Below are positions 3,326 to 13,459 of a stretch of DNA of 13,459 nt, piece by piece (within the stretch, counting starts at the first letter, position 1; each line of letters begins with the position of its first letter). Origin of the DNA: a virus. The position numbers and the translations under genes are program-made. Under the pieces are notes generated by a model. The model was not told the DNA's origin, did no database searches, and saw only the letters and a program-made list of their open reading frames with translations. The stretch is from UHGV virus genome UHGV-0077154, one strand, 5' to 3'.

Positions 3326-3697
3326 TTATTTCCCGCCGAAAATCCAACCGATGATGGCACCGATTATCGCAGAGCGGGTCTCACCTGCTGCTCCTTTGAG
3401 AACGTTAATAACTGCATCGCCTGCACCAGGTGCCTGCTGTTGAAGTAAATTCAAACCACGAGGTGTTAACTTGGCGGCGGTATCCATGTCGGTTGAAGAG
3501 ATTATCTCCGTGTAACCCATATCGCTGAGAGCCTGGAGTGTGTTGCAAAGCAGGTCAATCTGAGTTCTGTCTCCTCTGGGCTTCCAGCCGAAGTCTGAAA
3601 ATTCGAAAGAAGAGTAAGCCGGATAGTCCGCAAACAGTTTCACCAGGATTCCAGTTGCCATCTCGTTAAAGCTGTCTTTGCCTTGGACGAATTCCAT
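3326..3697 (-). CDS. Hypothetical protein (123 aa) with C-terminal Gly-rich hydrophobic tail (tail-anchored?)
   Basis: Good SD (AAAGGAAA, about 8 nt upstream of ATG on the minus strand). C-terminus SAIIGAIIGWIFGGK looks like a single TM/GxxxG segment. Transcribed divergently from the iteron/promoter control region. Confidence 0.6.
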   Translation of the reverse strand: MEFVQGKDSFNEMATGILVKLFADYPAYSSFEFSDFGWKPRGDRTQIDLLCNTLQALSDMGYTEIISSTDMDTAAKLTPRGLNLLQQQAPGAGDAVINVLKGAAGETRSAIIGAIIGWIFGGK

Positions 3698-3821
3698 AAT
3701 GTTTCCTTTTGTTCACTGATTGAACGAGGTTACTTACTTACCGCTGGAAGTGCCAGCAAGAAGGGATGACGCTGTGCTGTTAATCACTAGGTGAGGGGGT
3801 GTCTTCTACCAGAGGGGAGGC

Positions 3822-3916
3822 CATTGGTAAAGAATCTTAACTAACGTTAGTAAAGATCCTTAACCAGCCATTAGTAAAGAATCTTAACTAACCATTGGTA
3901 AAGATACTTAACCGTA
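3822..3916. repeat. Four tandem ~24-bp iterons (consensus about CATTG-GTAAAGA-ATCTTAAC), followed by an AT-rich stretch (3917-3970)
   Basis: GTAAAGA recurs at 3827, 3850, 3874 and 3898 (spacing 23/24/24 bp), with conserved flanks cattgGTAAAGAatcttaac. Downstream AT-rich DNA contains TAGATCA x2 and CTATATCA x2. Confidence 0.7.
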
Positions 3917-3985
3917 CTATATCACTTACTAGATCATCTTTAGATCACTGCCTATATCAGTAAAAACATTAAGGTCAAAGACAGA

Positions 3986-4001
3986 TTGAACATGCGTTCA
4001 A
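3986..4001. promoter_or_regulatory. Inverted repeat TTGAAC-ATGC-GTTCAA, operator-like
   Basis: 6-bp arms are exact reverse complements with a 4-bp spacer; located in the divergent control region. Confidence 0.35.
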
Positions 4002-4296
4002 TTGTTGGAGTTGTTAGGTGTTATGTAGACAGGCTTCGCCTGTTTACACTCTGTGTGGAAGACAAGCGCAAGCGCGTCAGTCCAATGTGGATCGAGCACG
4101 GCGCAGAGGAGCTTTAAACGCGACGTAACTCCCCCCTTGGAGGGGCGGCGCACCCCCCTCAACCCTGCGCTCTAACAACATCTCTAGAGTCCTCTATCGC
4201 GTTCTGAGCGTCTTTCTCTTATTGTTGGTGACTTTGTACCGTTCCGCTTACAGCGTTGAATCTGAAGCGTCTGAGAGCGTTTTGTGATTACGGGGC

Positions 4297-4410
4297 TTGA
4301 CAAAGAAAATGTATGTGTATAAGGTTGCGGGGTATTGACACAAAACATTTATATCTCTTTATTCATTAAATGAGTTATCGGTTGACAAAGAAACTAATTT
4401 ACTATAAAAT
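4297..4410 (+). promoter_or_regulatory. Three tandem TTGACA-containing repeats/promoters upstream of the rightward operon
   Basis: TTGACAAAGAAA at 4297-4308 and 4382-4393, TTGACACAAAAC at 4335-4346. The third has a good -10 (TAAAAT at 4405-4410, 17-bp spacer); the first has TATAAG at 4318-4323. All are oriented toward the CDS at 4469. Confidence 0.55.
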
Positions 4411-4468
4411 ATATATTATCAAATGAGATGATTTTATGACTAAACAATAACTTAAATAGGAGAGATAC

Positions 4469-4897
4469 ATGGGGAAACCTGTTCTGTTCGATTTCTCGAG
4501 CGCCACTGCCTCAGAGATTGTCGCTGCAATCGATGCAAAAATTACCACAGCTCAAAATCTGCACGCCTTCCGCACTCGTATGGGTGGTGCCAAGAAAGCC
4601 GATAAGCTCTATCCAGCTACTCGCGAAGCACTGAACATCATTAAACGCCTGCGTCAGCAAGCGAAAGACGCAAAAATCATCCGGGATATTCTTAAACCGT
4701 ACTCAGCAGAGTTGGCAAAAGGCCGTGATGTTATGGAAATCATTGAACCAGTGCTGTCTGCCTGGCGTGTCTATTACGCCTCTCATGGCATTGGTTTGAT
4801 GAATGAGCAGATCCTCCTGTTGAAAATGATTGAGGCGGGCGGTGAACTCGAAGGTATTACCGGAAAACCCATTCCCGAACTGACCACAACCGAATAA
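4469..4897 (+). CDS. Hypothetical protein (142 aa), first gene of rightward operon
   Basis: Strong SD AGGAGA with a 5-nt spacer to ATG; no family recognised. Confidence 0.7.
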   Translation: MGKPVLFDFSSATASEIVAAIDAKITTAQNLHAFRTRMGGAKKADKLYPATREALNIIKRLRQQAKDAKIIRDILKPYSAELAKGRDVMEIIEPVLSAWRVYYASHGIGLMNEQILLLKMIEAGGELEGITGKPIPELTTTE

Positions 4898-5072
4898 CCA
4901 TTCTCTTCTTTACGGTGCGAAGCACTTTACCAGAGGTAAACACCTCCGGTGCTATTAGCTTTACTCTGTTGGCAGCAACGCCACCAAACGAAATCGCCGT
5001 AAACACGGCTCCTTACCCCTGATCAATTCCATGATCGCAGGGGCGCACCCGCATATCTAACGCACAGGAGAG

Positions 5073-5264
5073 ATGATTGTGAAACTGTCACTAGACGATG
5101 AAACATATGCAATTTTACGCGAAGAATCTGACCGTTTGGGGATGCCAGTTCCGAGGATGATCCGGAACATGTGCCAGAACCTGGCGAAACACATTCAGAA
5201 ACGCAATGAACAACCACTGACGAACCCACAGGGAGAACAACATGACAGAGACAGTAGAAGCTAA
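5073..5264 (+). CDS. Ribbon-helix-helix-like small DNA-binding protein (~61-63 aa)
   Basis: IVKLSLDDETYAILREESDRLGMPVPRMIRNM fits the beta-strand plus two-helix pattern of CopG/Arc/MetJ-type RHH proteins. GGAG lies 8 nt upstream of GTG at 5079, which may be the true start rather than ATG at 5073. Confidence 0.55.
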   Translation: MIVKLSLDDETYAILREESDRLGMPVPRMIRNMCQNLAKHIQKRNEQPLTNPQGEQHDRDSRS

Positions 5265-5886
5265 TCTGCCAGACGAACAGGACGGCACTTTTGATCGCAA
5301 TTATACCGAGATTAAGCGCTTGAAAGTGTTGGTTGCCGACGATGGAACTAAAATTCCGTTCAGCGCGAACATGAAAGTAGTCTACGCCTACCTCTACACC
5401 TTCCAGACAAATAAAGAGCGGCGGAACTACCCTGAGCCAATTTATCCTAATATGGAAATAATCGCGTGGGAAAATGGCATTACTAAACCCACGGCGCAAA
5501 AGGCTGTGGATGATTTGATGCGGGCGGGGGTGTTGATTAAGGACCAAATTCAGGTTGGGAGCGGGTTTAAGTCCAACAATTACGTTGTGTTGAAACCCTC
5601 GAAAGTGGTGGCGCGTGGCGTCACTCCACCGCATCCAAATGCTTCTAAATATTCAACTGCCGAGGAGAGCGGTAAGAATGAACAAAAACGTGCTGTGGTG
5701 GAACCTGCCGCGCCTGTTGCTGGAAAACCAGACGGCATACCTGTTGTGGATATTCCTGTCGATGCTGATGTACCTGCCGATGATGATGCGGTGATCGGAG
5801 ACTTTAGTGATCCTTACCTTGATGCTGAAGTAAAAGAATGGCAGAAACAAAAACATAGTGGAGGATTGAATTGTGTGAACACGTAA
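5242..5886 (+). CDS. Putative winged-helix-like DNA-binding protein with acidic C-terminal tail (214 aa); candidate iteron-binding initiator or regulator
   Basis: SD GGGAGAA 4-5 nt before ATG; overlaps the upstream gene by 23 nt. Segment MEIIAWENGITKPTAQKAVDDLMRAGVLIK resembles a wHTH; C-terminus is D/E/P-rich (DIPVDADVPADDDAVIGDF). Function is inferred only. Confidence 0.6.
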   Translation: MTETVEANLPDEQDGTFDRNYTEIKRLKVLVADDGTKIPFSANMKVVYAYLYTFQTNKERRNYPEPIYPNMEIIAWENGITKPTAQKAVDDLMRAGVLIKDQIQVGSGFKSNNYVVLKPSKVVARGVTPPHPNASKYSTAEESGKNEQKRAVVEPAAPVAGKPDGIPVVDIPVDADVPADDDAVIGDFSDPYLDAEVKEWQKQKHSGGLNCVNT

Positions 5887-6347
5887 GCGTTGAACTGACC
5901 GCAGATGAAGAACAAAAGCTATCTCGCCTTTTCTCCGTCCTGGAGAAACCGACATATAAATCCCGATCCAAACCTTCCGATCCGGAAACACAACGCAAAG
6001 CCCGTTTATTGCTTAATCGTGGATTTTCACCGCATATTGTCGCTAATACCCTAGATCTGCCGTTCGCTGAAGTCTGGCGGCTCGCACGTCAAAAACAAGC
6101 GGTGACCTGGGCGATGATGACACCGACAGCCCGGACAGAATTTGTCCGTGAAATGTGGTCACATCGGATGCACCCGGAACAGATCCGCAAGCGTTGCGAT
6201 GGTCTGTCATACGTCAGTCTGAGATATTACCTGCATAACGCCGGGATCACTGACGCTGAAATGTTGGGTTACTACCCAGACGTGTTCGTGAATATCTGCA
6301 AGCTGCCGACAGTGAAGAAGAAGCGCACTAAGTGTAAGGCCCGTTAG
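5871..6347 (+). CDS. Hypothetical basic protein with HTH-like segment (158 aa)
   Basis: TTG start 6 nt after GGAGG (5860-5864), overlapping the upstream gene end (coupled translation). KARLLLNRGFSPHIVANTLDLPFAEVWRLARQ is HTH-like; lysine-rich C-terminus. Could be a regulator or a small-terminase-like DNA-recognition protein; not resolved. Confidence 0.55.
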   Translation: MCEHVSVELTADEEQKLSRLFSVLEKPTYKSRSKPSDPETQRKARLLLNRGFSPHIVANTLDLPFAEVWRLARQKQAVTWAMMTPTARTEFVREMWSHRMHPEQIRKRCDGLSYVSLRYYLHNAGITDAEMLGYYPDVFVNICKLPTVKKKRTKCKAR

Positions 6348-6349
6348 GG

Positions 6350-6365
6350 TGAACGTTAACGTTCA
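6350..6365. promoter_or_regulatory. 16-bp perfect palindrome TGAACGTTAACGTTCA
   Basis: Exact self-complementary 16-mer immediately after the stop codon at 6347; shares the TGAAC/GTTCA half-site with the palindrome at 3986-4001. Confidence 0.4.
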
Positions 6366-6511
6366 TCACTTTGTGACCGGATCGCCAATCCAAATAATCC
6401 CACATCGGGAGCCAATGAACTTTGAAGCAATCCTTTCTTACCTGCCCGTTGTCTGGCTGGCGTATCGCTGCGTCCGTGATGGGCTGATCCTACTTTGGAG
6501 ACACCATAAAA

Positions 6512-6892
6512 ATGACATTGAACAGCATTAAAAATGCTCTGTTTGCCGCTATGCACGGCATGACACCGGAGGAATACGAACTCCAAAAGGCGCGGGACAA
6601 TCTCAAGAGCGTCACCGATAACTTTCTGGATCAACATCCGGAGTTGCTCAAATCAGCCTCGTCTGACACCCCCACGGATAAACGGGGCGAAGCCCTCTCG
6701 CCAATGCGAGACACCTTTGGTGCTGAACAACGGATTAAAAAATCTTTGGGCGCTGATAGCCGTCCGGCGGTAAGTCATACCGCTGATCACATCGATCCTG
6801 AAATGCTGGCGAAAGCTAAAGCAGCGGCTGCTGCTCTCGCAAAATCTGACCCTGATCGTTACGGCAATATCATCAAGCAGCAGGGGGTGTGA
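6512..6892 (+). CDS. Hypothetical protein (126 aa)
   Basis: ORF with GGAG about 11 nt upstream; its stop overlaps the start of the next gene (GTGATGA), suggesting translational coupling. Ala/Lys-rich C-terminus. Confidence 0.55.
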   Translation: MTLNSIKNALFAAMHGMTPEEYELQKARDNLKSVTDNFLDQHPELLKSASSDTPTDKRGEALSPMRDTFGAEQRIKKSLGADSRPAVSHTADHIDPEMLAKAKAAAAALAKSDPDRYGNIIKQQGV

Positions 6893-9036
6893 TGGCGAAT
6901 GGCAATATCATAGTGACTGAAACCGTAAACGAGGTGACATGGTCTGTCGATCGGACAGCCTTCGGTCGCGCCCTGAAAGCTGTTAAATCCATCAAGGCTG
7001 CTCATGAGAAACCAGCTAAGGCGCTTGAGAAGGCCCAGAAGCGGACCGTCCAGAGTGAAGGCAAAGCCGCACTAGCAGCAGCGAAAGCCCAGACAGCGAA
7101 GCTACGCCAGGCTGAACAATTGTCTAAACAGCAACAGAAACAAGCTCAGATACAAGCCAAAATGGAGCGGGACGCAGTAGCCCACGCCAATAAAATGACC
7201 TCATTACAGGCGCGTCAGTTATCCCAACAGGAACAGGCAGCACGTCAGAATGCCCGTTTAGCAGCAATATCTGAAAAGGTGAGACAGGCGAGTCGCTCCC
7301 GCGCGATGACCTACACCCCAAACATGGGCGGTCAACATTACGATCCTGGTCTTGTTTCCCGTCAGACTGACGCAATGAACCGTGGTCACGGCGCTGTTGC
7401 TGCCGACATCGCAGCCACCAAAAAGGCGATGGCCCTGGAGGAGAAGCGCCAGCGTGAGAAAGAGGCAGGACTTAAGCGTGAGGTGACTTATTACAACAGT
7501 TTGCGCCGTAGCGCTTTGACTCTGGCAAACGTGAACGGCGCTGACGTTGCAACCCGTTATAAAGCGATCAGTGCAGCAAAAGAGGCACTCAAAGCCCAGA
7601 AAGAAGAGCGTTATACGGTCGAAGAGACCCGTTTCGAAATGGCCCGTATCACTACAGAATTACGCAAGCAGGCTCGTCTGCAACAACGTATTACCCGTGA
7701 GCAGAAAGCCGCAGGTGTTCGTGCTGGTCGTGTACGCACAGAAAGCCGTGGTGGAAGTGTAGGTCTGGCTGCCGCTGGTGTTGTTGGTGGTGCGGCGTTA
7801 GTAGGTAGTATGGGCGTTTCTCGTGTTGGTCAGACCCTTCAGGGAAGCCTTGAGCGTTCTCGCGATGTGAAAAAACTCCAGCAGTATGGGATCAGCAACC
7901 TTGAGTTCGCAGCACTTCAGGATCTATCAATGAGCCGTGTTGGTTACTCACTGAGTGCTGACAAGCTGGCTGACCTCAACAAGGACACAACCGAAAAGGC
8001 CGGGGAATTGCTGAATACTGGCTCTTTCAAACGTAACAAGAAAACTGGACAGGTGAATTTCAGCGGCGGTGGTGAGTTTGCAGATATCATCAATAACGTA
8101 CTGACCTCCACCAACGGCAACCAGAAGGTAGCCCAAAAGGTGATCGGGGAACTGCAAAAACTGGATTTTCCAACATTTATCACTTATCTAAAGCAATTAC
8201 AGAAAACTTTCGGCTGGACTGATCGACAGGTGCGACACCTGGCCGAGGCTGTGAATGATGGTTCGGTCTTCCTCGAAGTGTTCAATGATGAGGGGCAGGG
8301 ACTTATCCAGCGTATGAATCAACTCGCTTCTGAAGGATGGACCCTATCTGATGCACAGCAGGCCAACCTTGATAAGCTGGCAGCTTTGGGTGCTGAGTAC
8401 AGTCGCGTGCAGATGTCGCTTGCTGACCACTTCAGCGCCAGCTTCGTGCAGGGTCTGGGAGAATATGCAGCTAATACTGACACTCTACGTCAGAAGATGA
8501 CTGGACTGATCCCAATTTCCGATGCTCTCGGCGTTGCCCTTGGTGAGCTAACCACCAACATTCTCTCCTTCGCTGGTCGAGTCGGTGAAGAACTCAAGAA
8601 AGGCGCGACACTGCCGGATGCAGTCTACAACACCGTAGTGGATGACTCTGCAAATAGCACCGCCGATTGGATTAAGGAAAAGACCGGATTTGATCCACGC
8701 AGCATCGGTCAGACGCTCAAACAGATTTACCCGTGGCTGGATAGTTTCGCTCCGAGCAATATCGGCTCAGGCACGGCGTATAACGATCCAGCGCTAGCGT
8801 TGAATGTTCCTGGTTTCAACTCAATACAACCCCAGCAACCAACGTTTACGATTCCGACAATTGACAGCATGACGCAGCGACAGCCGATTCCTGTTGCGGT
8901 CACTGGCGAAGCTGAGATTAAACTCTCACCGCTTGATATTAACGTGAATGACGGCGCTATTAACGGTTTGATTGATACAAAACTGAGGAGCTATGAGCAG
9001 GCACAGAACAACATGATCCTTGGTATTGCTCAATGA
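6889..9036 (+). CDS. Large coiled-coil protein with central Gly/Ala-rich hydrophobic segment (715 aa); tape-measure-like or scaffold-like structural protein
   Basis: N-terminal ~270 aa are A/K/Q/R-rich heptad-like repeats (KAQTAKLRQAEQLSKQQQKQAQIQAKMERD). Central segment GGSVGLAAAGVVGGAALVGSMGV is TM-like. Sits immediately upstream of the D/E-like capsid genes. ATG at 6892 is the more likely start (GGGGG 4 nt upstream). Assignment is by architecture only. Confidence 0.55.
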   Translation: MMANGNIIVTETVNEVTWSVDRTAFGRALKAVKSIKAAHEKPAKALEKAQKRTVQSEGKAALAAAKAQTAKLRQAEQLSKQQQKQAQIQAKMERDAVAHANKMTSLQARQLSQQEQAARQNARLAAISEKVRQASRSRAMTYTPNMGGQHYDPGLVSRQTDAMNRGHGAVAADIAATKKAMALEEKRQREKEAGLKREVTYYNSLRRSALTLANVNGADVATRYKAISAAKEALKAQKEERYTVEETRFEMARITTELRKQARLQQRITREQKAAGVRAGRVRTESRGGSVGLAAAGVVGGAALVGSMGVSRVGQTLQGSLERSRDVKKLQQYGISNLEFAALQDLSMSRVGYSLSADKLADLNKDTTEKAGELLNTGSFKRNKKTGQVNFSGGGEFADIINNVLTSTNGNQKVAQKVIGELQKLDFPTFITYLKQLQKTFGWTDRQVRHLAEAVNDGSVFLEVFNDEGQGLIQRMNQLASEGWTLSDAQQANLDKLAALGAEYSRVQMSLADHFSASFVQGLGEYAANTDTLRQKMTGLIPISDALGVALGELTTNILSFAGRVGEELKKGATLPDAVYNTVVDDSANSTADWIKEKTGFDPRSIGQTLKQIYPWLDSFAPSNIGSGTAYNDPALALNVPGFNSIQPQQPTFTIPTIDSMTQRQPIPVAVTGEAEIKLSPLDINVNDGAINGLIDTKLRSYEQAQNNMILGIAQ

Positions 9037-9132
9037 TGAAACAGAGGGTGGCGAATTCGTCGCCCCTATCTCAACACCACAATGCGTATGTATCAAATTT
9101 AGCGACAAATCAAATACTTTTCGTGAAATTTG

Positions 9133-9161
9133 TTGTAAATGATAATCATTCGTGTTAAAAT
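9133..9161 (+). promoter_or_regulatory. Sigma70-like promoter (TTGTAA-17-TAAAAT) overlapped by a Fur-box-like element
   Basis: AATGATAATCATT at 9138-9150 matches the central 13 of the 19-bp Fur consensus GATAATGATAATCATTATC (14/19 overall); -35 at 9133-9138, -10 at 9156-9161. Confidence 0.4.
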
Positions 9162-9167
9162 AATATA

Positions 9168-9542
9168 CAAGGTGAATTACAACAGCCAAATGTTTTTCCC
9201 TTCTCCTTAGGAATCAAAGTGCGCTTTTCCCAGAGCGCCTTTTCTCATACAGCCAATATCCGCACCCTCTCACGGTAAGGTTAGGCCATTGCCGCTGGCT
9301 GTATCAGAAAAGCATCGCAGAGCGATTAGCCAGCAGGCTAACCCGTTCTCGTGTGTAGAAAATTTCCACCTAAGGTGGATTTGCCAAAAGTCCTGTCCTC
9401 CTCGGCGGGCTGTCAGCCGGACACTAACGGCATCAGGTGGCAACGTTTTTGGGTCTCCTTACCCATTCTTTGGAGCGTTGCCGCCTCCTCATTCCTACCA
9501 GTGAAATTCACACCGGACGACTCTCCGTCCGGTCACTTTTTT
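9168..9542 (+). ncRNA. Candidate non-coding transcript/leader between the Fur-box promoter and a strong terminator; possibly a short ~80-nt form ending at a weak hairpin (9221-9246)
   Basis: No credible ORF here (the track ORFs are R/P-rich with no SD). Several hairpins: TTAGCC-AGCA-GGCTAA, TCCACC-TAA-GGTGGA, GCGCT-N8-AGCGC followed by CTTTTCTC. Ends at the intrinsic terminator 9513-9542. Confidence 0.3.
9513..9542 (+). terminator. Rho-independent terminator
   Basis: Stem CCGGACG (9513-9519), loop ACTCTC, stem CGTCCGG (9526-9532), then TCACTTTTTT. Confidence 0.7.
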
Positions 9543-9610
9543 CATCGGAACAATTCTAAAGGCTGGCCCTGTCGCCGTTTACGGCTCAAGCAGGCGCTGG
9601 CCTTTTGTTT

Positions 9611-9622
9611 ACATAGCTATGT
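9611..9622. promoter_or_regulatory. 12-bp perfect palindrome ACATAGCTATGT about 22 bp upstream of the D-like gene SD
   Basis: Exact self-complementary 12-mer; candidate operator/activator site for the capsid operon. Confidence 0.35.
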
Positions 9623-9645
9623 GAAATTTAACGGGAGTTAATTAT

Positions 9646-9987
9646 ATGAAAATGGGAAGCCTTGAGCGCTCTTACAATGACGTGATCGCGTATGCAGCCG
9701 ATCCGAATTTTGACCGCAAGACTATTACTGTCGATCTAGCTGTAGAAGTCCAGCCGGGTAGTTGCATTACCAGCACTGGAGCTGCTTATGTCTCTGGTGA
9801 TGACTGCCTGCTGGTCCTGAGCCACCACAGGGCCGAAGATGCTGCTCATATCATCGTTGCTGATCGCGGGATTTACATCAAACAAGACACCATCACCGCT
9901 GTTATGGGCGCTACCGCTGGCGCTAATGCTATTGCCGCACTCACCAAAACGGGCGCAATCCGTACTAGCGCACCGGACGCAGAATAA
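9646..9987 (+). CDS. Lambda gpD-like head decoration protein (113 aa), tentative
   Basis: Size (113 aa vs 110 for lambda D), position directly upstream of the E-like gene, and a Gly/Ala/Thr-rich beta-type composition (TITVDLAVEVQPGSCITSTGAAYVSGDD...TAGANAIAALTKTGAIRTS). SD GGGAG 8 nt before ATG. Confidence 0.45.
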   Translation: MKMGSLERSYNDVIAYAADPNFDRKTITVDLAVEVQPGSCITSTGAAYVSGDDCLLVLSHHRAEDAAHIIVADRGIYIKQDTITAVMGATAGANAIAALTKTGAIRTSAPDAE

Positions 9988-10005
9988 TAATAAGGAGAAG
10001 ACAAC

Positions 10006-11040
10006 ATGGGACTATCAACCAATTTCAGCTACGCGGATTACACCAACACCTTTGTGAACATGGATGCAAAGAACACTTTGCTGTCCACGCTTAATGTTTT
10101 CAGTGATCGTCAGACTTCTGCAAGTCCGAAGGTGAGCCTCGATATCATTGATGAAGTCGCTCAGAAGGTGGCAAGCTCTGTTAATCGTTACGGTTCAGAG
10201 TGGTCAACCATTCCTAAGCGTAGCGCTAGCAATCACCTGATTGAAGCTCCACTTTATGCTTTTCAAGACCGGATTACAGCGGCAGACGTGCAACCATATC
10301 GCAAACCAGGCTCCGACCTGCAAATGTCTGTAATGGATGCGGTCACTTCTTCTGCTGTCGCAATGCACGATAAGTACATGCGTACTAAAGAGAAAATTTT
10401 CGCTGACGCACTCTTCCGAAATACTGTCGAAGCGACCTACACCCAGCAGCCGATCATTTCCTGGGAAGATGAATTTGGATACCAACAGGCAACCGGAACG
10501 ATCAAAACCAGCGTTAGCTCTGGTGACCCACTTCGCAGCCTCGATGATGCAGTAACCGCTGCTAAAGTGCGCATGGGGGGCCTGGCTGGTCAGCTTGATG
10601 GATTTATCCTGTTTGCAGGTAGCAATGTTTATCGCGGCATTAAGTATCACCCTGATGTTCGTCAGAATGTTCAGTTCGGTGTGCTTGATCGGGATGTTCT
10701 GTTTAATAAAGAAGTGCTTCCGGCATTCTCAACATTCATCATTGAAAATGTTCGAGTGGTGGAGGTCACGGATCAGGCACTTTACGGAATTGGTCCGGAT
10801 GAATCCTTCCTGGTTCCACGTTTCAGCCGCCCACTGTCCTCTGATATTGCTCTACCTTTCGGTTATGTAGCAACGGCTACCAGCCGCAATCTTGATCTGG
10901 CATTTGCTGATCCGGTTGATTTCCGTATCTGGAGCGTACAGGACAAGTTTAAGAACGTGGAGCTATTCGCGGAAAGCTCAATCTTGCCTGTGGTGTACCG
11001 TCCGGATTTCGTTACAAAACTGACGAACGACGCAGCGTAA
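10006..11040 (+). CDS. Major capsid protein, lambda gpE-like family (344 aa)
   Basis: Strong SD AAGGAGAAG. Length 344 aa vs 341 for lambda E. C-terminal region ...VVYRPDFVTKLT resembles lambda E ...LADPDEFVSVQLA. Gene order decoration-then-capsid as in lambda. A hairpin at 11053-11074 (TGGGGC-N10-GCCCCA) follows the stop. Confidence 0.6.
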   Translation: MGLSTNFSYADYTNTFVNMDAKNTLLSTLNVFSDRQTSASPKVSLDIIDEVAQKVASSVNRYGSEWSTIPKRSASNHLIEAPLYAFQDRITAADVQPYRKPGSDLQMSVMDAVTSSAVAMHDKYMRTKEKIFADALFRNTVEATYTQQPIISWEDEFGYQQATGTIKTSVSSGDPLRSLDDAVTAAKVRMGGLAGQLDGFILFAGSNVYRGIKYHPDVRQNVQFGVLDRDVLFNKEVLPAFSTFIIENVRVVEVTDQALYGIGPDESFLVPRFSRPLSSDIALPFGYVATATSRNLDLAFADPVDFRIWSVQDKFKNVELFAESSILPVVYRPDFVTKLTNDAA

Positions 11041-11121
11041 GACAGCGGATTTTGGGGCTGACTATTTGGCCCCACCGTGAAGAATGGCCTGAAAAGGCGA
11101 GGCAAAGAAGAGGTGATTACT

Positions 11122-11325
11122 ATGAAAATTCAATTTCAGACTAACAACGGCTTCCCGTTGCTGACAGTTGCAGACGAGCGCGTTTTAGATTTTCTGAACG
11201 TTAGCGCAGTGTGTCGGTTCCTGAAGGTTCCGCGTTCCTCGTTCATGATGGACGTTGAGCAATACGGGCTTGAAAAGGCAATCAGTGAAGCCCTGCTGAA
11301 GTTAAGAAAGAATAAAAATTGTTAA
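11122..11325 (+). CDS. Hypothetical small protein (67 aa)
   Basis: ATG at 11122 preceded by GAGGTGA with a 5-nt spacer; the track ORF's upstream Met at 11077 has no SD. No family recognised. Confidence 0.5.
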   Translation: MKIQFQTNNGFPLLTVADERVLDFLNVSAVCRFLKVPRSSFMMDVEQYGLEKAISEALLKLRKNKNC

Positions 11326-11379
11326 TAATCAATCTGTTGGTATTTGTTGTCAAAAGAATCATTGTGTTTGTTTTTCGCG

Positions 11380-11450
11380 CATTTACTTGACACTATGATG
11401 CAGATTGCGTAGGCTGAACATAAAATAATTGACTATTCTATATTCAAACC
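11380..11450 (+). promoter_or_regulatory. Putative promoter region for the small AT-rich cassette
   Basis: TTGACA at 11387-11392 with a weak -10 (TAGGCT, 17-bp spacer); AT-rich surroundings; precedes a strong SD at 11499-11504. Confidence 0.3.
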
Positions 11451-11509
11451 GGACTTCAACTTGAGAATGCTTCGTTCCTACATCTCCCTTCAAGGGGTAG
11501 GAGGATTAT

Positions 11510-11719
11510 ATGAACTTTGATATGCGTACAAACCAAAATTGTGCATCTTTTTTTAACCCAGCAACCAAGGCGTTTGTCGTCGTCGATTCGTTTGACAACT
11601 ACGAGTTCGATGTTCGTGCTGGTACTTTATCACGCACTGAATTTGTAGGCACAATCACAGCTTCGAACGATGAAGAGTTGAACAAGAAATTAGCTGAGAT
11701 CACGGCTGCTCATATATGA
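11510..11719 (+). CDS. Hypothetical small protein (69 aa), cargo cassette gene 1
   Basis: Excellent SD AGGAGG with a 5-nt spacer; AT-rich codon usage; stop overlaps the next start (ATGA). Confidence 0.65.
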   Translation: MNFDMRTNQNCASFFNPATKAFVVVDSFDNYEFDVRAGTLSRTEFVGTITASNDEELNKKLAEITAAHI

Positions 11720-12090
11720 TAACTCAACAGCAAATTGATGATTTAGTTGCAGATATTAACGATATCTTAGAAGAAGATAGAGCTAGACTGAAGATGTCAT
11801 TTCATTTTGCTGTTGATAGACTCAATGATCAGCGTAACAAACCTCCAATCACGCTAGATGAATTGAGAGTGATTTTTACAAATTTCATTGAACAACACTT
11901 GCAGACCATTTTAGGCAAAGATGAGGGGTTCTCCTTCACTATTAAGTGCCAGAAATCAGGTATTGCTATACCTTGCGCCATAGAGCATGAACTTGAGATT
12001 GGTGCAACGTGGGTAGTACAGCAAGTGATCACCATCATGCGGAATCCGAACTTTAACCCATACCATGGTGATGTCATCTTCGAAATCTAA
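11716..12090 (+). CDS. Hypothetical protein (124 aa), cargo cassette gene 2
   Basis: Translationally coupled to the upstream ORF; AT-rich; followed immediately by a strong intrinsic terminator. Confidence 0.65.
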   Translation: MITQQQIDDLVADINDILEEDRARLKMSFHFAVDRLNDQRNKPPITLDELRVIFTNFIEQHLQTILGKDEGFSFTIKCQKSGIAIPCAIEHELEIGATWVVQQVITIMRNPNFNPYHGDVIFEI

Positions 12091-12092
12091 GT

Positions 12093-12118
12093 AAAAAGGC
12101 GCAATAGCGCCTTTTTTT
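12093..12118. terminator. Bidirectional rho-independent terminator (AAAAAGGCGC-AATA-GCGCCTTTTTTT)
   Basis: Perfect GGCGC/GCGCC stem with a 4-nt loop, flanked by an A-run and a T-run; sits between the convergent cassette gene 2 and integrase 3' ends. Confidence 0.8.
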
Positions 12119-13313
12119 ACAAATCCGGATAACACGCCAACTCGACATACTCCGATAGTTCCTTCATCCCTGGCCCTTTGCTGTAGGTTCTGAATGCTTC
12201 GGTTTTCGCTTTTTGTTCGGTATGTCCAGTGATGGCTCCGATCCGTTGTTCTGGCACCCCTGCACGGTCTAAGCAGGTGATGAACATTCCCCGTAAGCTG
12301 TGAAAACATTGCCGATCTGTAGCGGTTGGCAATGTGCTGTCACGTAGCCGGGTAAACTTTTGGCTGTACCACGGACCCCGCTTACCATCCTTCCGAATGA
12401 TGTTATTAGACTGAGCCAGAAGATATTCACCGCTGTTATTTGCCAGATGCTTATCAACAATCCCCATCAGCAGCGAGTGGATCGGAACATACCGCACCCC
12501 GGCTACAGTCTTGGACTTGCTGACAAAGAAACATCTGACACCCTCCAACATTACAATTTCATCCCGCTTGATGCTGGCGATCTCATCAAGTCGCATTCCT
12601 GAATACAGCCCAATCAGTATGACATCGCGTAGAACGTCATCCGCTTCTCTGACAAGTGTTTGCAATTGTTCAGGTTCAAACGGCTGATAACTTTCTATCG
12701 TGCGACGTGCTTCGAGGTTATGACCGTGAAACGGGTTACTGTCGGGGATTGCGTCATATCGACGTTTGGCGAACTCGTACAGACTCCCTAAAGAGGTTAG
12801 CCAGTTTTGCACGGTCTGCGGTGCTGCCTTTTTCTGTTGGCCTTCAATGAAGTCTGTAACCGTTCTGCGTCCTATCTTGTTCAGACTAATATCAACTTTA
12901 CCGATACTCTGGAGAAATACTTCCACCGCTCGCGCGGATTTGCTGAGTGTGGAAAATGCCCGACGTTCACTATAAACCGTCATGTATTCATCACGGATGA
13001 CTGCCAACGTTGGGATAGGGGAGACTGCTACAGGCGTACTCTTGGCCTGTTTGATTGTGGTGTGGAGTGTGGTGATCGCATTCTGGATGCGAATGTCTTC
13101 CCGATCAGGATTCAACAGGGCTTTCAGATTGTTGAACTCAATCAACATGTGATTTCTGAAGTGACGAGCCTTAAGGATGTCTTTTGTCCCGGTGGATTTT
13201 CGCCAGGCTCGTTTGTTGTCAAACAGGTGACGCATGTACGCAGGTACAAAGACCTGAAAGATCCATACGCCCGAATGACTTTGAAAAAGATACTGATTGT
13301 TCTTGATAGACAT
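12117..13313 (-). CDS. int: Tyrosine recombinase / phage-type integrase (398 aa)
   Basis: C-terminal catalytic motifs: GMRLDEI (Arg box I), HSLRGMFITCLDRAGVPEQRIGAITGH (H-x-x-R box II), FRTYSKG (catalytic Tyr). SD AGAGGA about 8 nt upstream of ATG; gene lies next to attR. Confidence 0.9.
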   Translation of the reverse strand: MSIKNNQYLFQSHSGVWIFQVFVPAYMRHLFDNKRAWRKSTGTKDILKARHFRNHMLIEFNNLKALLNPDREDIRIQNAITTLHTTIKQAKSTPVAVSPIPTLAVIRDEYMTVYSERRAFSTLSKSARAVEVFLQSIGKVDISLNKIGRRTVTDFIEGQQKKAAPQTVQNWLTSLGSLYEFAKRRYDAIPDSNPFHGHNLEARRTIESYQPFEPEQLQTLVREADDVLRDVILIGLYSGMRLDEIASIKRDEIVMLEGVRCFFVSKSKTVAGVRYVPIHSLLMGIVDKHLANNSGEYLLAQSNNIIRKDGKRGPWYSQKFTRLRDSTLPTATDRQCFHSLRGMFITCLDRAGVPEQRIGAITGHTEQKAKTEAFRTYSKGPGMKELSEYVELACYPDL

Positions 13314-13375: not shown

Positions 13376-13459
13376 AACGAGAGCTTCCCAAGCTCTATAC
13401 GAGGGTTCGATTCCCTTCGCCCGCTCCAGTCTCCTCATAAATTAACAAGTTATAATTTA
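13376..13459. repeat. attR: partial tRNA-Gly 3' copy (60 bp perfect to 13435) plus imperfect extension to the window end
   Basis: Identical to 2-61; the sequence upstream (caatgtcgggatggagt) does not match the tRNA 5' half, so this is the truncated copy. Confidence 0.8.

Follow-up and report, generated by a model that had tools for sequence, protein, structure and literature searches.

What does the first gene of an early operon do when its product resembles no recognised protein? The question is raised by UHGV virus genome UHGV-0077154, a DNA stretch of 13,459 nucleotides (the window, always meant here in its full length), in which the first cistron of the rightward early operon encodes an orphan protein of 142 amino acids, termed g142 (4469-4897, + strand, stop codon included). 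The window is one integrated element delimited by 60-bp att repeats. By its gene content (att repeats at the end of a tRNA, an integrase, its own replicon and a gpE-type capsid gene within an incomplete virion set), the element fits the definition of a phage satellite, as had been assumed in a note written from the DNA letters alone (the original prediction). Scans with Pfam, PHROGs and NCBIfam detected no terminase, portal, protease or tail gene in any open reading frame (ORF) of the window. We propose, with a probability of about 35%, that g142 is an early-operon nucleic-acid-binding protein with a regulatory or specificity function, acting on its own promoter or leader.

g142 is a conserved gene at the head of the early operon

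The ORF begins with an ATG at 4469, and a Shine-Dalgarno sequence, AGGAG, can be read directly at 4458-4462 (+ strand), six nucleotides ahead of it; the near-ideal start signal of the original prediction is indeed present. Ratios of nonsynonymous to synonymous substitution (dN/dS) lie between 0.057 and 0.134 (NG86, pairs with unsaturated dS), which identifies the ORF as a protein-coding gene under purifying selection. g142 is a real and conserved gene, and the first cistron.

The gene is preceded by promoter P1 (4382-4410, + strand; TTGACA-17-TAAAAT), which matches 11 of the 12 consensus positions; from 4300 to 12200, no other sigma-70 match on the + strand is as good, and the runner-up reaches 9/12. 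Two further TTGACA hexamers (4298-4303 and 4336-4341, + strand) have poor -10 elements and were not accepted by the promoter scan: either the spacer is 15 nt long or the -10 element is without the conserved A, and only the proximal hexamer combines a canonical -10 element with canonical spacing. The sequence TTGACAAAGAAA occurs twice, at 4297 and 4382. Promoter-like sites are not in excess in the region 3600-5400 (2 counted, 2.8 in shuffled sequences). Relatives contain two to four TTGACA-type hexamers, often with one to three TTGAC hexamers upstream of the proximal promoter, and a promoter of the P1 form was found 55-85 nt ahead of the start in all 11 loci of g142 types A and B (see below) that were inspected. 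g142 had been described as the first gene after tandem promoters and as the most strongly promoted early gene. It does occupy the first slot behind the strongest promoter; the tandem arrangement is only partly upheld, with one canonical -10 element among three hexamers, and the best sigma-70 match serves the whole downstream operon and not g142 specifically.

g142 is the hallmark gene of the element family

With g142 homologs as the entry point, the most distant of them at E = 6.5e-20, fifteen loci (designated L001, L002 and so on) were collected. The elements of the family are integrative, about 11-14 kb long and hosted by Enterobacterales, and in them iterons, a non-coding block and promoters precede g142. 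Gene order is the same in 15 of 15 loci: a long non-coding region, g142, directly after it one or two genes for ribbon-helix-helix (RHH)-like proteins, the replication initiator gene (rep), genes for a 155-195-aa and a 109-126-aa protein, an optional gene for a TMP_3 protein, terminators, the gene for a partner protein of about 113 amino acids and the gpE-type capsid gene. The reverse search started from nine IMG/VR loci retrieved with a capsid-protein profile. All six loci with at least 31% capsid identity and sufficient upstream DNA contained a match to the g142 hidden Markov model (E = 1e-38 to 1e-70), located about 4-6 kb upstream of the capsid gene; two phage-like IMG/VR loci with 20-23% capsid identity contained none. 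These results show that g142 is a universal hallmark gene of the element family.

A search of 5.8 billion proteins yielded 119 clusters of g142 homologs, all annotated as "hypothetical" and all from Enterobacterales (Klebsiella, Enterobacter, Citrobacter, Leclercia, Escherichia, Phytobacter, Raoultella, Cronobacter, Erwinia, Ewingella and others). When 1.84 billion representatives were searched exhaustively with a profile, just 22 clusters at 50% identity emerged. The longest homolog does not exceed 155 residues, so that no domain fusion is evident. The g142 region is present in 38 of 5,426 complete E. coli genomes.

Around this constant gene, other modules are freely swapped: Rep together with the iterons, the RHH type, the integrase together with att, the capsid type, and the tape-measure-like gene, which may be present or absent. 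g142 itself comes in at least four allelic types (A1, A2, B and C), which reassort against all of these modules in the manner of lambdoid-phage specificity modules. The E. coli relative L001 carries a g142 that is 99% identical to that of the window, while iterons, RHH, Rep and integrase all differ; its integrase is merely 40% identical, and its target is tRNA-Thr (thrW). Between the swapped iterons and the swapped RHH and Rep genes, the 950 bp comprising the block, the promoters and g142 are kept, which indicates that the replicon module is split around the g142 module. Identities of g142 and capsid protein also diverge in both directions: g142 is 86% and the capsid 38% identical in L011, 46% and 77% in L009, 82% and 31% in L019, and 60% and 32% in L021, and L146 combines a 95% identical capsid with a divergent type-C g142. 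This reassortment speaks against a specific partnership of g142 with Rep, the integrase or the capsid protein.

It bears directly on the idea that g142 is an accessory of another module, working alongside Rep at the iterons, as an excisionase alongside the integrase at att, or as a scaffold for the capsid protein. The location of g142 between the iterons and rep, its predicted all-helical fold, shared by many scaffolds, and its constant company of a capsid gene would fit such roles. Yet iterons and Rep have been exchanged together between the window and L001 with g142 staying 99% identical, the same g142 accompanies integrases of 40% identity and a different tRNA target, and g142 types do not follow the types of the capsid protein or its partner (L011, L009, L146). 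Judged by this reassortment, all three roles appear disfavoured, and we regard them as very improbable.

The two halves of g142 and the promoter segment

g142 consists of two parts of opposite charge. The N-terminal domain (codons 1-76, 4469-4696, + strand) is basic (net +8, isoelectric point (pI) 10.3) and defines the allelic types A1, A2, B and C; the C-terminal domain (codons 77-142, 4697-4894, + strand) is acidic (net -5, pI 4.7) and holds the most conserved motif, PYSAELAKGRDV. The polarity is family-wide, with medians of +9 (pI 10.5) for the N-terminal and -4 for the C-terminal part among 116 members.

In L008 and L012, an N-terminal half of type A is joined to a C-terminal half that is 82-92% identical to that of type-B loci, the N-terminal halves of the two groups being merely 38-41% identical. 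At the DNA level, L008 and L012 share with the type-B loci L002, L005 and L020 the upstream block (82-83%) and codons 77-142 (82-87%), and the DNA from about -325 to codon 76 has been replaced. When L012 is compared with L002, two stretches align, one at -625 to -325 and one running from codon 77 through the stop (82% in each), with no alignment between. The exchanged cassette therefore corresponds to the promoter/leader segment plus the N-terminal domain. These alignments show that the halves of g142 recombine independently and that the N-terminal half travels with the promoter region.

Across 91 locus pairs, similarity of the promoter segment correlates with identity of the N-terminal domain (Spearman 0.72) more than with that of the C-terminal domain (0.50), whereas similarity of the upstream block tracks both about equally. 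Promoter similarity was expressed as blastn bit scores, since global-alignment identity is uninformative for this AT-rich DNA, which aligns at 75-85% regardless. Promoter type is independent of RHH type (RHH type 1 occurs with A1 and with A2, and A1 promoters occur with both RHH types), which leaves g142 as the sole conserved protein that matches promoter type. It is likewise independent of the Rep, integrase and capsid types.

The promoter segments themselves bear signs of type-specific constraint. The four type-A2 loci share a 34-nt promoter core, AA(C/T)TTGACAAAAAGTGTGATTTATGACATAAT, with only one variable position, spacer included, as against about 75% identity in flanks and coding DNA; to judge from this comparison, the constraint on the core is greater than a promoter alone would need. 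The sequence TAA(A/G)TGAG stands directly ahead of the -35 element in 4 of 4 type-A1 loci. In the window, P1 is flanked by the direct repeat ATTAAATGAG / ATCAAATGAG (4365-4374 and 4418-4427, + strand), a putative operator.

The g142 leaders of type-B loci (L002, at about 9941-9965, L005 and L020) and of L008 and L012 contain a hairpin shortly downstream of the -10 element, with compensatory changes (GGTGGTG..CACCACC versus GGCGG..CCGCC; TGGGA..TCCCA versus TGGGGA..ATCCCA). The leader in the window forms a weak AU-rich hairpin at most.

Homology searches and predicted structure

That the protein is unrecognised was confirmed in every collection searched. Pfam returned no match at E <= 10 for 22 whole members of the g142 family or for isolated domains, and no helix-turn-helix (HTH) family at the same threshold either for the 22 whole proteins or for eight isolated N- and C-terminal domains. 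A match to Pfam SesA in 2 of 22 members (E = 0.014) was dismissed as noise. Neither a single g142 query nor the family profile matched any PDB sequence, PHROGs gave no match, and fold searches of PDB and BFVD with the predicted structure returned nothing similar. By tblastn, no relative was found among 50,697 phage genomes and 72,556 plasmids. PADLOC gave no match and NCBIfam a sole match at E = 0.084, so that no membership of a toxin or defence family was detected. The original prediction had named homology to a housekeeping-type family as an outcome that would speak against it; g142 has no detectable homology to anything.

The AlphaFold2 model is all-helical, with seven helices and a predicted local distance difference test score (pLDDT) of 89.8. 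The protein lacks cysteine altogether. In the model, three short N-terminal helices (14-22, 28-37 and 41-47) could form a non-canonical DNA-binding bundle.

Helper interference or anti-repression, the functions to which the original prediction pointed, has to be weighed against these searches. g142 would then be an early factor aimed at the helper phage, either an anti-repressor that induces or senses it or an interference protein binding a conserved protein of helper or host, the variable N-terminal domain setting the target. The first early slot and a probably high expression would suit such a factor. g142 is often more conserved than the capsid protein, which is compatible with a conserved external partner; its allelic diversity could stem from an arms race, and P4 epsilon and early proteins of Staphylococcus aureus pathogenicity islands (SaPIs) and of phage-inducible chromosomal islands (PICIs) provide precedents. 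No homology to a known anti-repressor, Ant, epsilon or interference protein was found, however, nor any PADLOC match. The tblastn searches of phage genomes and plasmids gave no relative, and the data point to no helper. Exchange of a basic N-terminal domain together with the promoter is not what this explanation predicts, and we consider it unlikely. That exchange and the free reassortment of the gene argue instead for a cis-acting regulator or specificity protein.

Proposed role of g142

According to the regulatory reading that we favour, transcription from P1 would make g142 first and in quantity. The basic N-terminal domain (1-76) would recognise either operator DNA overlapping P1 or the 5' leader RNA, and the C-terminal domain (77-142), acidic and more conserved, would either form oligomers or make contact with a conserved component of the host or the helper. 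The outcome would be control of the operon g142-RHH-rep, with the tape-measure-like gene where present, by autoregulation of the Cro or Str kind; a possible extension is read-through of the polymerase into the terminator-insulated capsid genes. From nucleic-acid binding to the target site and the regulatory outcome, we infer these steps from the features described above. The slot of the gene, first cistron followed by RHH and rep, matches that of cro or str/alpA.

Several observations weigh against this proposal. Co-inheritance of the N-terminal domain and the promoter is predicted by their physical adjacency alone, which makes it suggestive and not decisive. Type-C loci have no obvious sigma-70 promoter within 170 nt of the start. 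A hypervariable "recognition helix" (28-37) was considered and rejected, because any amphipathic helix would show such an entropy pattern, which has no diagnostic value. The promoter segment and the sequence ahead of the capsid genes have no motif in common above chance. Finally, no repressor that would silence P1 in the integrated state was identified, and the logic of the switch is incomplete to that extent.

The upstream block and the packaging question

Between the iterons and the g142 promoters lies a conserved non-coding block (3963-4170), which remains about 82% identical in loci whose iterons and promoter segments cannot be aligned to the window. Its equivalents were located at 9708-9925 in L001, 9376-9568 in L011 and 3766-3882 in L007, and a version of about 340 nt is present in L002, L005, L008, L009, L012 and L020. 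Hairpins within the block show compensatory changes (TTGAAC..GTTCAA versus GTGAAC..GTTCAC; ACAGGC..GCCTGT versus AATGGC..GCCACTT), and Rfam gave no match to it at E <= 1. The block ends in a G-rich motif, GGGGCGGCGCACC (4141-4153), which is the left breakpoint of the exchanged cassette; in 14 of 15 loci, including those with diverged flanks, this motif or a one-base variant is found 270-450 nt ahead of the ATG. The block could be a non-coding RNA, a single-strand initiation or primosome site, or a packaging site.

If it were a packaging site, g142 could be a specificity adaptor comparable to Rpp or to a small terminase: its N-terminal domain would bind a cosB-like variable segment and its C-terminal domain would recruit the helper terminase. 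The G-rich motif at 4141-4153 would be the cleavage site, and element DNA would be packaged into shells of the element's own capsid protein. An element that has a capsid gene but neither terminase nor portal must capture the packaging machinery of a helper, and it is because a terminase has to be borrowed that we keep this explanation as a minority possibility. The layout (a block ending in a GGGCGGCG-like motif, a variable segment, a variable N-terminal domain and a conserved C-terminal domain) parallels cosQ-cosN, cosB, and the N- and C-terminal parts of the small terminase (TerS) in lambda-like phages, as well as cos-rpp in PICIs (PMC9026076, PMC6739421). The recurrence of the motif ahead of g142 also fits, and Rpp proteins are of similar size, 139-154 amino acids (PMC9026076).

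The resemblance to lambda did not withstand closer comparison. The G-rich motif and the lambda cohesive end have eight or nine bases in common, only GGGCGGCG(A/C), and local alignment scores between the block and lambda cos do not exceed the 95th percentile of shuffled sequences. Blastn of the region 3700-4468 against the 50,697 phages found nothing relevant. In IMG/VR, the extended motif occurs solely on contigs of the element itself, and a scan for GGGCGGCGAGGGTG returned more than 100 unrelated GC-rich matches. Alignment of the g142 family profile with lambda Nu1 (PF07471) by hhalign gave a probability of 0.3%, there was no Pfam or PHROG terminase match, and the g142 model contains no winged HTH. 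A lambda-type cos upstream, with g142 in the position of Nu1, was therefore rejected: the motif is conserved within the family, but its likeness to cos is not above that of shuffled sequences, Nu1 is unrelated and no phage shares the block.

The capsid module and its terminators

The gpE-family major capsid protein (344 amino acids, 10006-11040, + strand) matches Pfam Phage_cap_E at E = 4.6e-14. BLASTP does not align it with lambda gpE, and its sole relative among the 50,697 phage genomes is a 22% match in a Vibrio phage. The family has at least three capsid types, at 97%, about 52% and about 31-38% identity. The gene is preceded by that of the partner protein (113 amino acids, 9646-9987, + strand), which has the position of lambda gpD and no similarity to it.

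A gap of 610 nt separates the early operon from the capsid genes and contains two hairpins resembling intrinsic terminators (9221-9238 and 9512-9533, + strand). In 12 of 14 loci, hairpins of this kind precede the capsid-partner gene, within about 70-250 nt of it; often arranged in tandem, they are unrelated in sequence. They would insulate the capsid module from the early operon, so that some regulatory step is needed for capsid expression. A promoter-like site with an extended -10 element (9133-9161) lies upstream of the hairpins in the window, a layout that recalls lambda pR'-tR'. This arrangement of promoter and hairpins suggests antitermination, perhaps by a Q-type factor of the helper.

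g142 itself might be the antiterminator, a processive factor of the lambda N or Q kind that loads on RNA polymerase at its own promoter or leader hairpin and passes the terminators before the capsid genes. The recurrence of these terminators with unrelated sequences, the common orientation of all genes from g142 through the capsid gene and the compensatory changes in the leader hairpins of type B, L008 and L012 would accord with such an activity; an N-terminal specificity domain beside its cis site, coupled to a conserved C-terminal domain, resembles N-nut modules. Nevertheless, g142 has no similarity to N, Q or any solved antiterminator, and the leader in the window lacks a convincing hairpin. 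The terminators would be explained equally well by a Q-type factor from the helper or by a late promoter within the final 70-110 nt. We think it improbable that g142 acts in this way.

Other features of the element

The spacer of 175 nt between g142 and the RHH gene (4898-5072, + strand) is strongly structured in the window (-58 kcal/mol, z = -4.6 against shuffled sequences), and relatives differ by a compensatory change in one of the hairpins (CCCCTG..CAGGGG versus CTCCTG..CAGGAG). No terminator was found on the + strand of this spacer. The structured non-coding DNA that had been noticed after g142 is thus real in the window but not general: it is missing in L002, L005, L008, L009 and L012, where the RHH gene starts about 5-25 nt after g142. 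The "regulator genes" expected downstream proved to be a 63-aa RHH-like protein (5073-5264, + strand), with a match to Pfam RHH_1 below cut-off (E = 0.007), and a replication initiator-like protein of 214 amino acids (5242-5886, + strand; PHROG 270/391/678, O-like), for which relatives carry DUF6945.

Two small proteins follow (5871-6347 and 6512-6892, + strand), and then a protein of 715 amino acids (6889-9036, + strand), whose relatives carry Pfam TMP_3 and whose N-terminus matches tape-measure PHROGs. Relatives of the second small protein (126 amino acids) carry PF26210 (Phage_phiTE_211). The products of 6512-6892 and 6889-9036 look, from these matches, like a chaperone and tape-measure pair in an element otherwise without tail genes. 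Not all family members have this pair, and in L016 the gene for the 715-aa protein is divided into two.

Upstream of the block, four iterons of about 24 nt (3820-3916) probably constitute the origin; they co-vary with Rep type and not with g142. In relatives, iterons are located at 9583-9661 (L001), 9221-9361 (L002), 9123-9261 (L006) and 9175-9294 (L011), and L002, L006 and L008 share the iteron ACCACTGAA(G/T)AAAG. A few orphan ORFs separate the iterons of the window from the cargo adjoining attL, a PD-T7-4 defence gene encoding a 211-aa DUF4145 protein (622-1257, + strand; full-length PADLOC match, E = 4e-98).

The attL and attR sites (2-61 and 13376-13435) are a 60-bp exact direct repeat corresponding to the 3' part of a class-II-like tRNA. 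The tyrosine integrase gene (12117-13313, - strand) lies next to attR, with small ORFs between it and the capsid gene. We considered whether the contigs of about 13 kb in Logan and in metagenome-assembled genomes represent an episome or else DNA with cos ends. The idea was discarded, because every one of them shows the layout of the integrated form, the integrase lying at one end. The stand-alone contigs of about 11-14 kb are accounted for as whole elements broken at the 60-bp att repeats, not as episomes.

About half of the family encodes, besides the full-length integrase, a 183-202-aa protein consisting of the tyrosine-recombinase catalytic domain alone (Pfam Phage_integrase). Its gene is on the - strand, 1.7-2.3 kb upstream of g142 (L002 7498-8106, L005 7707-8294, and also L006, L007, L012, L019 and L020), and is absent from the window. 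The protein may be a multimer resolvase or a regulator.

Significance of g142

In enteric bacteria, phage satellites influence both horizontal transfer and defence against phages. To our knowledge, few satellite families are understood, each having been decoded through its first early gene and its packaging trick. The present family occurs in Klebsiella, Enterobacter, Citrobacter, E. coli, Erwinia and relatives and carries defence cargo, PD-T7-4 in this case; g142 is its one gene that is both invariant and specific to the element. We consider that g142 is probably the switch of this apparently undescribed satellite family of clinically relevant enterobacteria. No description of the family was found in the literature on DUF6945, enterobacterial capsid-protein-E satellites and extensions of SatelliteFinder, which is weak evidence of novelty as subscription journals were mostly uncovered. 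With its confident predicted structure, lack of relatives and clear allelic types, g142 offers a tractable entry to how the family switches on and to its helper. It is also a ready marker for elements that current satellite categories may not cover. Should g142 merely be a Cro-like autoregulator, the gain would be modest, an annotation for about 120 clusters of "hypothetical" proteins.

A more ambitious interpretation, possible but rather unlikely, is that g142, the structured block and the variable promoter segment together form a new specificity module, built on a fold with no known relative, that would be the master switch of the satellite family. The family would make shells of a private capsid protein of the gpE type, at times joined by a tape-measure-like protein of its own, and a helper would supply portal, terminase and tail. 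Taken furthest, this interpretation would make g142 a new type of antiterminator or packaging adaptor that couples helper infection to expression of the insulated capsid genes.

Comparison with known systems

Several known proteins share parts of the g142 arrangement. The Rpp proteins (RppA/B/C) of E. coli PICIs are likewise small and two-domain, with an N-terminal part for DNA specificity and a helical C-terminal part (PMC6739421, PMC9026076), and are encoded just downstream of a conserved cis site in elements without a terminase of their own. Rpp has a winged HTH with a beta-hairpin, like the DNA-binding domain of lambda TerS, and its cosQ/cosN site, about 100 bp upstream, is copied from lambda-like helpers (PMC6739421, PMC9026076). 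Rpp also binds the TerS of the helper and blocks packaging of the helper. In contrast, g142 is predicted to be all-helical and matches neither Rpp nor TerS in sequence or fold, with no winged HTH in the model. The block upstream of g142 matches no phage, so that no helper-like cosQ-cosN was found; promoters fill the 300 nt between block and gene, and g142 heads an early/replication operon.

Cro and Str/AlpA resemble g142 in being encoded by the first early cistron, with replication genes next, and in that the type of protein and the promoter/operator segment can be exchanged as one. The first early slot is that of cro in lambdoid phages and of str/alpA in PICIs. These are HTH proteins of about 60-75 amino acids, recognised by Pfam, that face a divergent repressor across a compact operator region and bind operators overlapping their own promoter; for g142, the joint exchange of N-terminal type and promoter segment and the near-invariant type-A2 promoter core would be indirect signs of such binding. 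g142 differs from them in its 142 amino acids, its lack of a recognisable HTH and its extra conserved acidic domain, and this family has no conserved divergent repressor.

The N-nut system of lambda offers another parallel: a first early gene, a cis site in the upstream leader, a basic N-terminal specificity region, a C-terminal part directed to the host machinery and terminators downstream. Lambda N is intrinsically disordered and has an arginine-rich motif, whereas g142 is predicted to be folded and helical, and no boxA- or boxB-like elements were found in the leader of the window.

An excisionase, or recombination directionality factor, would co-vary with integrase and att; a g142 of 99% identity accompanies integrases of 40% identity and different tRNA targets. 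P4 delta/Ogr have a Cys4 zinc finger and g142 has no cysteine; for these proteins and for epsilon, tblastn gave no relative in the phage collection. As regards toxin-antitoxin pairs, the neighbouring RHH gene lies 175 nt away in the window.

At the level of the whole element, the closest likeness is to capsid-encoding satellites (cf-PICIs and Vibrio PISP), which are also small, with their own replicon, a private capsid set apart from phage capsids and terminal defence cargo. The cf-PICIs encode a full head module with terminase, portal, protease and adaptors (10.1101/2022.09.08.507074), and Vibrio PISP, a satellite-plasmid with a "capsid protein E", encodes a protease, a small terminase and a MerR-like regulator (PMC13230959). 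Unlike them, the present family has only the capsid protein and its partner of about 113 amino acids, sometimes the tape-measure-like pair, and g142, which is absent there. The element is a variant of the capsid-encoding satellites, with a private gpE-type capsid, a small partner and no terminase, portal or protease; and g142, by analogy, would work most like first-gene regulators of the Cro/Str type or like N-nut and cosB-TerS specificity modules, being a member of none of them.

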